Positions 13,801 through 16,800 of a stretch of DNA of 64,000 bases are shown piece after piece. Source of the stretch: Octopus vulgaris (Eukaryota); NCBI GenBank assembly GCA_951406725.2, contig OX597817.1, forward strand, positions 150,350,001 to 150,414,000. The letters are read 5' to 3'. A model generated the notes under the pieces. It was not told the origin of the DNA. It was given only the letters and a program-made list of their open reading frames with translations, and did not search any database. The translations under genes were made by a program, and so were the position numbers. Every line of letters begins with the position of its first letter. The stretch's first letter is position 1.

Positions 13801-16800
13801 GTAATAGCTCGATGTCTGTTGCAGTAAGTGGATAGTAATTTTATTGATAACAAAACCTCTGTTAGATGCTAGAGTTAATTTCAAATCAACAAAGACAACT
13901 TTTTCTTACAATATAAAAAGGGAGGAACAACCTATAATTCATTGGATATGAACACAGACTAGAATCAAAATGGAAGTGAACTGAGGAAGTAACTACGTCC
14001 AAGAGGATTAGTTGTTTCAATGAAGACAAGGACGTGATGTGTATAGATTATGCATGCTAAAGAAAGAAAAAGAAAAGAAAAAAAAACAGGGCAAAAAAAA
14101 AAAATCGAGAAGTATGCTAATATGCATATCCTCCCAGCCCACAGAAGTATGGAAAAATGCATGTTAAGTTGCTGTTATTGCTGCTGGCAGAGCTAAAAGA
14201 CACGAGATAATTAAAAAGTAGAATTACTAGTCTAATTGTATTGATGCAAGTGTTACATATGTTATTAACATTAGAGCCAAAAACAATACAAGTATTGATT
14301 GTGCAACAAGCTCTAGTGTTTTACTCATTATATACACTTGCAAAAACACATTCTGTGGCTGTGCGTGTACATACATAGATACACACACACACACATATAT
14401 ATATATATATATATATATATAACTGATCGCTAAATCCACTAGTTTTTATTATTCTCTCTGTTTATTTCCTCATATTCCTTTCTGCTCTAAGCGTAAAAGA
14501 CTTTCTCACTTTCCAGGGCATCAAACGAATACACCTGCTCGTTGTTCATACACCTGTCTTTGTCTTTCGTTTTTCCGTAAATTTCAACCATATATATATA
14601 TATATATATATATATATATATATATATATATATATATATACACACACATACACGTGTGAGTGTATGTATTCTGTTTACATATTAAGTTGTTGCCTTCATT
14701 CCTAACATAAGCACAAATCCTAGTGAGGTTTATAAATGATCCATGTTACTTGACTGATACTATTTTATCAGTCCCAGAACAATGAAAAGCCAAATTCAAC
14801 TTGGCAGGGTTTGTAAAGAGACATAACATAATACCACAAGGCATTTGTCTTAAACTCCTCTATTTCTGCCAATCCACTATCTGGAACAATCCAATGTAAA
14901 AGGAGATTTGTAAATTACAAATCCACAATGCTTACAAAAATTGTGAAATATTAACTTTAATTCCCCTCCTCCTCCTCCCATTGGTTAAACACATTTTGAA
15001 AAGGAATCAGCTAAATAACTTGTTACTCACCTTAAGTGGTTTGCAATTTTCCCGAATATACCGCCCAGATGAGTTTTTTTCATCCCAGTCCAGTTTCCCA
15101 TGGTAGAAATACTTGCTTTTTCTTTGGAGATAAATATGGGGAGTGTGGGGTTAGGGATTAGAAAAACAAACAAACAAACAAAGCCGTATGAGCTAATGAG
15201 AATAGCCATGCAGCATGCTACCCAAGTCAAACTACATTCAGTTCAATGGAAACAACTAATAAAAGGTAAGTTATATTAGTATTGAAACAAATTATGAATG
15301 CTGGCAGCAAAAAGAAAAGTGGTAAACTAATCAACTAAAGAGACAAAAATTTATGGGGTGGGAACTTGGGTTATTACCAAGAGTTTGTACTAAATATGCT
15401 GGGAGATTAATAAATAACAAATTAGAAGTTTGGTCAGAAGAATAAAAATACAAACAGAACTTGCAGGCAGATTCAAGGATCCACAAAACACATGCATTGC
15501 CCCACTGGCAACTACTACCAAATTTAAATGGCTAACTGAAGAAACAATTGAAAGGAAATTTGAACAAGCAAGTAAACAACATTAGTCCCCAATGAAAAGA
15601 TTTTAGATGTTGAGCTTAAATTAAAAATTGTGAATTAAGATTATTGAAAGAGTAAATAGGAAACTATCTAATCGGGAATGGATTAAAATAGAGTTACACC
15701 AAAATATAACTATTCTAGAAATATCAATGTCACCTCCCAAAGAAGGCTTACAAGATAAGATTTTACTTCTTCAGATATAACTTTAGAAAATTTTGAAAAA
15801 AATCACCTTGAGAAAATAGCTTATATATTTTAGGACATTTTTTTAAAGTTTACACAATAAATAAATGAAACTTGGCAATTTTGTTTATCCCCCAAAAAAC
15901 GAAGCTTTGTTTTCAACAGAGAGATTTTACATTAGAAAGAGCTTAAGTTTAGAAATGTATCTACTACCTAAAAGACAACACACCAAAAGTGTTGTGAACA
16001 AATTAGTTGTTACCTGCTGGCACATTGCCCAAACGTCATACACTTCAGTGGTTTCTTACAGTTGGAAAATAGTAAGTCATGCACTATAGTGCACTTATGG
16101 TAGTAGTTACAGAGAAGGCTGAGCATGTACTTACATAAAGTGGTTTACAGTTCTCCCTTACATATCTCCCAGCAGAAGTAGTCGAGTCCCAATCAAGGCG
16201 ACCATGCCAGAAGTAATTTGTTCTTAAAACAATAGGAACAAAATGACAAGTGAATTTTATTATAATTAAAGTTTACTTCAGGGTTATTATAATTTGAAAA
16301 TAAATCATCATTTATGGATTTTCTTAAACTTGTGTTTCAAAATCAACAATGTCTTTGACTCATGTAATATCTACTAAATGTAAATTGCATAAGATGCCAC
16401 ACAATCACTTAAAATTTACTAAATATTACAACAGGAATACAAAATACATCCCGTGTAAATTGTCTTTTTTTTTTTTTTTGTTAATTGCACTTTGAAGAAA
16501 CAAACAAACTGGTGCTTTTACACAAGAATAATTTGTATTTATTTGTTCAGCCAAAGTTCCACTGACAACCTCTTGTCACTCTCACCATTGTTAATAGACA
16601 GTGAACCAATGATTATCCCACTGGAAAACTGTAACCAACAATGCTACAGTTCATAAAATGCAATTTAAAGTTTAAAAGAAGGGGTAACACAGGACTGTTA
16701 TAAAAACAGACAATTTGTTTGATATGCAAGTAATTACATTTTATCTTCACTCATATTTGAGCCATGACACTACCTTATAAACTAATTTATGAAATCATTT

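Follow-up and report, generated by a model that had tools for sequence, protein, structure and literature searches.

Duplicated exons in the kinase domain of the octopus CLK gene, their probable mutually exclusive splicing and likely history in molluscs

CLK/LAMMER kinases, such as human CLK1–4 and Drosophila Doa, are recognised by the LAMMER motif, the HTD loop and an RS-rich N-terminus, and they occur in alternative N-terminal isoforms, as they do in the octopus. As a master regulator, CLK governs alternative splicing, and it is known to sense temperature; its kinase domain is regarded as invariant among the products of one gene. According to the main text of PMC12795684, Mollusca have one CLK gene, and a splice site in the MAPK-like region is conserved from Drosophila to human. 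In CLK1 the MAPK-like insert (residues 400–432) comprises a beta-sheet (409–418), Trp419 and helix alphaH (424–432), the last covering the LAMMER helix and the groove used by SRPK1 for docking (PMC2667211, passages on the insert). The closest described system is JNK1 (MAPK8), in which the choice between exons 6a and 6b, combined with the p46 and p54 ends, gives four forms per gene, one of them with its own role in the zebrafish heart, as reported in the main part of PMC7259801. Tandem duplicated exon substitutions, such as FYN T/B and the protostome Ca-alpha1T, are ancient and spliced singly, with one copy later lost in some lineages (PMC9741552, main text).

The octopus has a single CLK gene, with two copies of each of the last two kinase exons, called here 12A, 12B, 13A and 13B. 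We consider it likely that 12A and 12B are duplicated exons which are spliced singly and probably stem from one tandem duplication preceding the mollusc–annelid split, their swap being predicted to retune a docking surface and not the catalytic site.

The octopus CLK gene and the use of its duplicated exons

The window, i.e. the whole stretch of 64,000 nucleotides analysed, carries the Octopus vulgaris CLK gene on its minus strand; the exon numbers are those of the initial annotation. Public CLK2 proteins of O. vulgaris and O. sinensis align with the window exon by exon, the full octopus kinase domain matches CLK2 with an E value of 1e-177, and the CLK/LAMMER hallmarks (the LAMMER helix, the HTD catalytic loop, the beta-hairpin and MAPK-like inserts, and the RS-rich N-terminus) are present. 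The activation segment, from DFG to APE, is encoded whole by one exon (19901..20029), common to all four forms. Exon 11 (17493..17572), with the LAMMER helix alphaG and a phase 2 donor, is also common to all forms. It is followed on the minus strand by 12A (16135..16222, 88 nt), the derived copy, which supplies the MAPK-like insert with its beta-sheet and helix alphaH, by a GT-AG intron of 1013 nt (15122..16134), and by 12B (15031..15121, 91 nt), the ancestral-type copy with a C-rich acceptor. Downstream on the same strand lie 13A (8083..8392, 310 nt), a copy of the last kinase exon peculiar to molluscs, and 13B (coding part 1696..1872), the ancestral-type last exon, which ends in SHSLSR.

Both copies of exon 12 run from phase 2 to phase 0 between canonical splice sites (acceptor ttttaag and donor gtaagt for 12A, ctccaaag and gtgagt for 12B), and the coordinates, lengths, peptides and sites given in the initial annotation all agree with those found here. 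Its assignment of the segment after LAMMER to the MAPK-like insert also holds, exon 12 corresponding to CLK1 residues 408–437 (12B aligns with these and with CLK2 410–439). The 12A and 12B peptides are identical at 19 of 29 residues, and codon positions 1, 2 and 3 agree in 22, 23 and 10 of the 29 codons, respectively, a pattern which, judged from the sequence, is that of an old duplication under selection on the protein. A search of the octopus's own 2.8-Gb genome for exon 12 revealed just two copies, both in the CLK gene (two candidates were scored), and one for exon 13 gave two matches, again both in this gene. A homologue search with the 13B peptide at the setting for longer sequences returned three candidates, none significant. 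Chance likeness of 12A and 12B was rejected on the grounds of the 19 shared residues, the codon-position pattern and the presence of only two copies in the genome.

Elsewhere in the gene, an alternative first exon (45350-45147, minus strand) gives an N-terminus devoid of the RS-rich region (models P0304 and P0297), the first residues of which are found again in P0188. An optional RS-rich exon of 42 nt lies within the kinase N-lobe (25347-25306, minus strand; P0306 and P0297, with a similar one in P0188), and a tandem acceptor (34678/34675, minus strand) adds or omits one glutamine ahead of the kinase domain. The intron between 12B and 13A harbours an AT/AC microsatellite of ca. 1 kb (9830-10800).

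Exon use was followed in assembled contigs of the region 14700-18200 from 4 of the 20 listed runs, with tissue unspecified and RNA status guessed (14 of the listed runs carry the label 'RNA?', itself a guess, and none is recorded as RNA); joints were taken from a listing of all but 20 loose-end rows and 260 piece rows, and contigs drop rare forms. The joints span GT-AG introns. Exon 11 is joined to 12A in all four runs and to 12B in two (X6 and X7), and the loose ends listed, the letters of which are those of exon starts, lead from 12B to 13B in three of the four (X1, X6 and X7) and from 12A to 13A in one (X2). In transcripts, 12A and 12B share their spliced neighbours, exon 11 upstream and exon 13 downstream. 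A 12A–12B joint occurs in none of the four runs among the joints listed, an absence that is not proof, since contigs lose rare forms. One X6 contig halts one base beyond 12A, this first base being common to 13A and 13B, which suggests a fork to both. In X1, in which no 11–12B joint is listed, one contig (16164-15031) runs from the end of 12A through the entire 1013-nt intron into 12B, which is spliced to 13B, and is possibly a dead-end or detained form. The contig depths at the joints, 12B to 12A, are 0:1262, 0:114, 250:704 and 145:104; they are not valid as a measure of level and give a hint of sample-dependent use of the two exons. As regards RNA editing, which contigs can mask, no variant letters are listed within 12A or 12B in the four runs. 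Mutually exclusive use of the two exons is supported by the transcript contigs together with pairs of gene models differing only in exon 12 (P0165/P0166 of Pomacea, P0311/P0317 of Haliotis, and the P0299/P0307 type of Octopus).

At 310 nt from its start, 13A carries an internal donor, and all five 13A-bearing octopus models listed splice 13A onto 13B; thus, in a correction of the first reading, 13A does not serve solely as an alternative last exon. Such splicing places 13B in the +1 frame, adds eight more residues and ends at a stop 26 nt from the start of the last exon, so that in the octopus the inclusion of 13A makes 13B mostly 3' UTR without a premature stop. The alternative 13A end is a read-through to a stop at 8065-8063. 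The 13A-bearing form of Argonauta has the same end as that of the octopus, and an X2 contig terminates exactly 310 nt past 12A (591 minus 281), which fits a fork at the internal donor. Across species, the tails encoded by 13A are from 57 to 837 residues long.

Distribution and history of the exon copies

A profile of both exons gave 354 matches, of which the best 150 were listed. Among the matches listed, at least nine spliced proteins have a 12A-type exon, followed in nine of nine by a 13A-type exon, and seven of these nine are gastropods and bivalves by name. Both copies of exon 12 belong to one gene in models of Octopus, Haliotis (abalone), Pomacea (apple snail) and Mizuhopecten (scallop), the scallop models P0177 and P0178 being of the A+A and B+B type, respectively. 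In 52 named mollusc models, which are predictions and not molecules and were retrieved with A-biased queries, the types of exons 12 and 13 are AA in 32, BA in 11, BB in six and AB in three; the 14 mixed models come from six genera groups, and the octopus contributes seven BA and one AB among 15 of the 29 cluster members. All four combinations are thus present as public gene models, without comment there, in keeping with the up to four C-terminal kinase variants foreseen in the initial annotation. Several long-tailed mollusc isoforms are named CDKL5-like, titin-like and Nek5-like in RefSeq (P0067, P0068, P0144 and clusters). In the annelid Dimorphilus and in other non-mollusc records, a 12A-type exon is combined with an exon 13 of the B type, and a single version of the kinase core is found in the records examined from insects, vertebrates and other non-spiralians.

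In 80 metagenome loci, a regular expression gave one exon 12 each and missed diverged 12B; 21 of these loci were subsequently searched by tblastn. By tblastn, the genomic order is 12A-12B-13A in the bivalve-like L006, and 11-12A-12B followed by a single B-type exon 13 in L019 and L075; in these loci 12A measures 88 nt and 12B 91 nt, or 94 nt in L006, and the phases are as in the octopus. Arthropod-, vertebrate- and cnidarian-like loci have one B-like exon 12. In 7 of the 21 loci, some of them near-identical (L030, L032, L044, L064, L067, L069 and L077), 12B was not found by tblastn between 12A and exon 13, so that the pair is dispensable in some lineages; these loci are non-mollusc-like. In gastropods, bivalves and cephalopods both exons are intact, contrary to the case regarded as fatal in the initial annotation, with one exon absent or degraded in related species.

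Insertions were noticed at the edges of exon 12: ca. 12 residues between exons 11 and 12A in L029 (994-1120) and L033, ca. 7 extra residues between 12A and 13A in P0188, and 6 extra residues before the insert in the dipteran-type proteins P0088, P0104 and P0106. The MAPK-like insert seems to be a recurrent target of splicing change.

The phylogeny of the exons across molluscs had been proposed as a check on the pair. In the exon 12 tree (38 rows, 30 columns, midpoint root), the 18 A exons, that of Dimorphilus included, form one group (99/97), while the nine B exons are intermixed with 11 single-copy outgroups, 12B being like the single exon of other animals. L019 and L075 group with Dimorphilus (87/73) and may be annelid-like. 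In the exon 13 tree (33 rows, 44 columns, midpoint root), all 14 mollusc 13A exons cluster together (99/98). The mean identity in exon 12 is 0.81 between A copies, 0.70 between B copies and 0.63 between A and B; of the two, 12B is the faster-evolving copy, with strong divergence in L006. The order 12A-12B-13A-13B had been held not to be a block duplication, and L019 and L075, with 12A-12B and one exon 13, support this view: the octopus order is likely to result from two separate duplications, with that of exon 12 being the earlier. In the simplest reading, exon 12 was duplicated before the mollusc–annelid split, with 12B lost in some lineages, and exon 13 later, in an ancestor shared by gastropods, bivalves and cephalopods, to which a Cambrian age is assigned.

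Probable exclusive use, predicted effect on the kinase and competing explanations

When 12A and 12B are included together, 12B is read in frame 0 and a stop appears at its nucleotides 40-42, leaving 49 nt to its 3' end; when both are skipped, the reading of 13A or 13B stops within three codons. Both the premature stop and the frameshift had been predicted, along with the conclusion that exactly one of the exons must be used. The contigs and gene models agree with the latter, but the reading frame alone does not enforce it, since the stop upon double inclusion lies just 49 nt from the next junction and, if exon 11 is joined straight to 13B, the stop falls within the last exon. The decay of transcripts with a premature stop follows a 50–55 nt rule, and the double-inclusion stop is at its edge when 13B follows; RNA decay can therefore be only part of the exclusion. 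Steric exclusion was rejected in view of the intron length (1013 nt in the octopus, 261 and 409 nt in L019 and L075), and incompatibility of U2 and U12 sites because all the introns are GT-AG. The likeliest cause is regulated competition between the acceptors, the T content of which, over 25 nt, is 28% for the C-rich 12B and 64% for 12A.

Pairing tests in the window and other loci, made with docking-site/selector duplexes of the Dscam type in view, showed no conserved cis-element for the exclusion. In an ungapped test in the window, none of eight region pairs beat shuffles (best 7/60). An element in intron 11 (16622..16638, minus strand) complementary to the 3' end of 12A is a candidate for an RNA duplex and a weak lead: with the probe picked post hoc, none of 40 shuffles was as low in the window, and at nine held-out loci the Stouffer z was -1.85, no better than that of another probe (-2.0). 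In L075, a 38-nt inverted repeat (1584-1621 and 2367-2404) flanks 12A and would loop it out (0/60 shuffles as high); this duplex may be a small repeat. The C-rich acceptor before 12B (15161-15122), found in an AT-rich genome and also in L006 (3633-3657), is a possible regulated site.

The two versions of the insert differ at several positions. At the sheet start, all 20 B and outgroup rows have K and none of the 18 A rows does, and there 12A is one residue shorter than mollusc 12B; the sheet aromatic is W in 14 of 18 A rows; the last residue of exon 12 is Y in 17 of 18 A rows and in 0 of 20 others; and the loop preceding alphaH differs as well. An AF2 model of the A+A form retains the CLK fold, with CLK2 as the best structural matches; 12A forms a hairpin and a helix (pLDDT blocks of about 74–83), and the 13A tail (below 50) is predicted to be disordered. 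The exon 12 swap is likely to change the partners, localisation or stability of the kinase, and thereby probably SR-protein phosphorylation.

If 12A and 12B are an ancient tandem pair used singly, a second, later duplication in molluscs would have produced 13A and 13B and would account for the A-B-A-B order. 13A would then add the putatively disordered tail and, in the octopus, silence 13B through the frameshift. The choices at exons 12 and 13 may be regulated by cell type or stage and would be at most loosely coupled, with double inclusion and skipping avoided mainly by competition of the two acceptors and the decay of frameshifted RNA serving as a partial back-up.

How loose this coupling is bears on a tentative alternative, which we rather doubt, that cells switch between an A+A form, with the derived insert and a long tail, and an ancestral B+B form, the mixed forms being minor or products of annotation. 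12B does run unbranched into 13B in all three runs showing it, 12A leads into 13A in X2, all nine spliced A-type proteins among the matches listed continue into 13A, and AA heads the tally of 52 models, obtained with A-biased queries. Nevertheless, the mixed models from six genera groups, the octopus ones among them, the fork suggested by the X6 contig and the fact that in Dimorphilus and further non-mollusc records 12A works with an exon 13 of the B type speak against it, and strict coupling, with A+A and B+B only, is at odds with the mixed gene models, although these are models and not molecules. A bolder proposal, to which we give only tentative credence, is that of a regulated switch from a canonical nuclear SR-protein kinase (12B+13B) to a second enzyme (12A+13A), whose remodelled alphaH and disordered tail would give new docking, localisation and substrates. 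It would be a splicing-level counterpart of the vertebrate CLK1–4 duplications, would have been retained for more than 500 million years and might be under the control of temperature or of CLK itself.

That 12A and 12B shift the activity range of CLK, with the exon choice tracking water temperature, we regard as unlikely. CLKs are thermosensitive, the MAPK-like insert is named a divergence hotspot, and regions beyond the activation segment can modify the range, but the thermosensing histidine reported in the same text lies in the activation segment (PMC12795684, main text). In the octopus this segment, the histidine included, is encoded by one shared exon, hence a role in temperature sensing is without direct support; moreover, both exons are retained in species from very different habitats. 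Less probable still is autoregulation, in which CLK activity would push unproductive forms, through retention of the intron or inclusion of both exons, and the difference in protein would be secondary. Unproductive splicing is established for transcripts of vertebrate CLK1/4, and the X1 contig with the retained intron, from a run with no 11–12B joint listed, is of the kind to be expected; yet the exon-specific K and Y are kept lineage-wide, which is needless in a poison exon, and productive 11-12B-13B contigs are plentiful in X6 and X7. The loss of 12B from some loci and its divergence in L006 might suggest that one exon is a degenerating relic or an error of assembly. This is highly improbable, as both are spliced in independent studies, combine third-position saturation with protein conservation, and are present in three mollusc classes, and for the octopus the transcript contigs already contradict it.

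Comparison with known systems

Molluscs are likely to make up to four versions of the CLK kinase core from one gene, two duplications of different age giving rise to a combinatorial C-lobe. Helix alphaH, lying over the docking groove, sets CLK apart from SRPK, and its two long-conserved versions amount to a natural experiment on the insert. Surveys of mollusc CLK based on a single isoform overlook up to three forms, and the long-tailed ones are filed under misleading names. The initial annotation knew of no description of the arrangement, and a literature search, of mostly non-subscription papers and supplements aside, likewise found no duplicated CLK exons; the terms 'duplicated exon' and 'mutually exclusive' do not occur in the main text of PMC12795684, nor does CLK in that of PMC9741552, which covers human and fly events.

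The CLK isoforms described in the passages of PMC12795684 consulted differ at the N-terminus, whereas the octopus swaps two duplicated exons of the kinase domain, and 13A adds a long C-terminal tail. In the use of ancient homologous exons one at a time, with copy loss, mollusc CLK resembles FYN T/B and Ca-alpha1T; two adjacent duplications of different age, one of them masked by a frameshift, are not among the events in the passages of PMC9741552 consulted. The likeness is closest to JNK1, also a CMGC kinase with alternative homologous C-lobe exons combined with two C-termini (PMC7259801, main part). However, the JNK1 ends arise by alternative re-entry into one last exon, while in CLK the last kinase exon is itself duplicated and, unlike in JNK1, the swapped exon is that of the CLK-specific alphaH insert.
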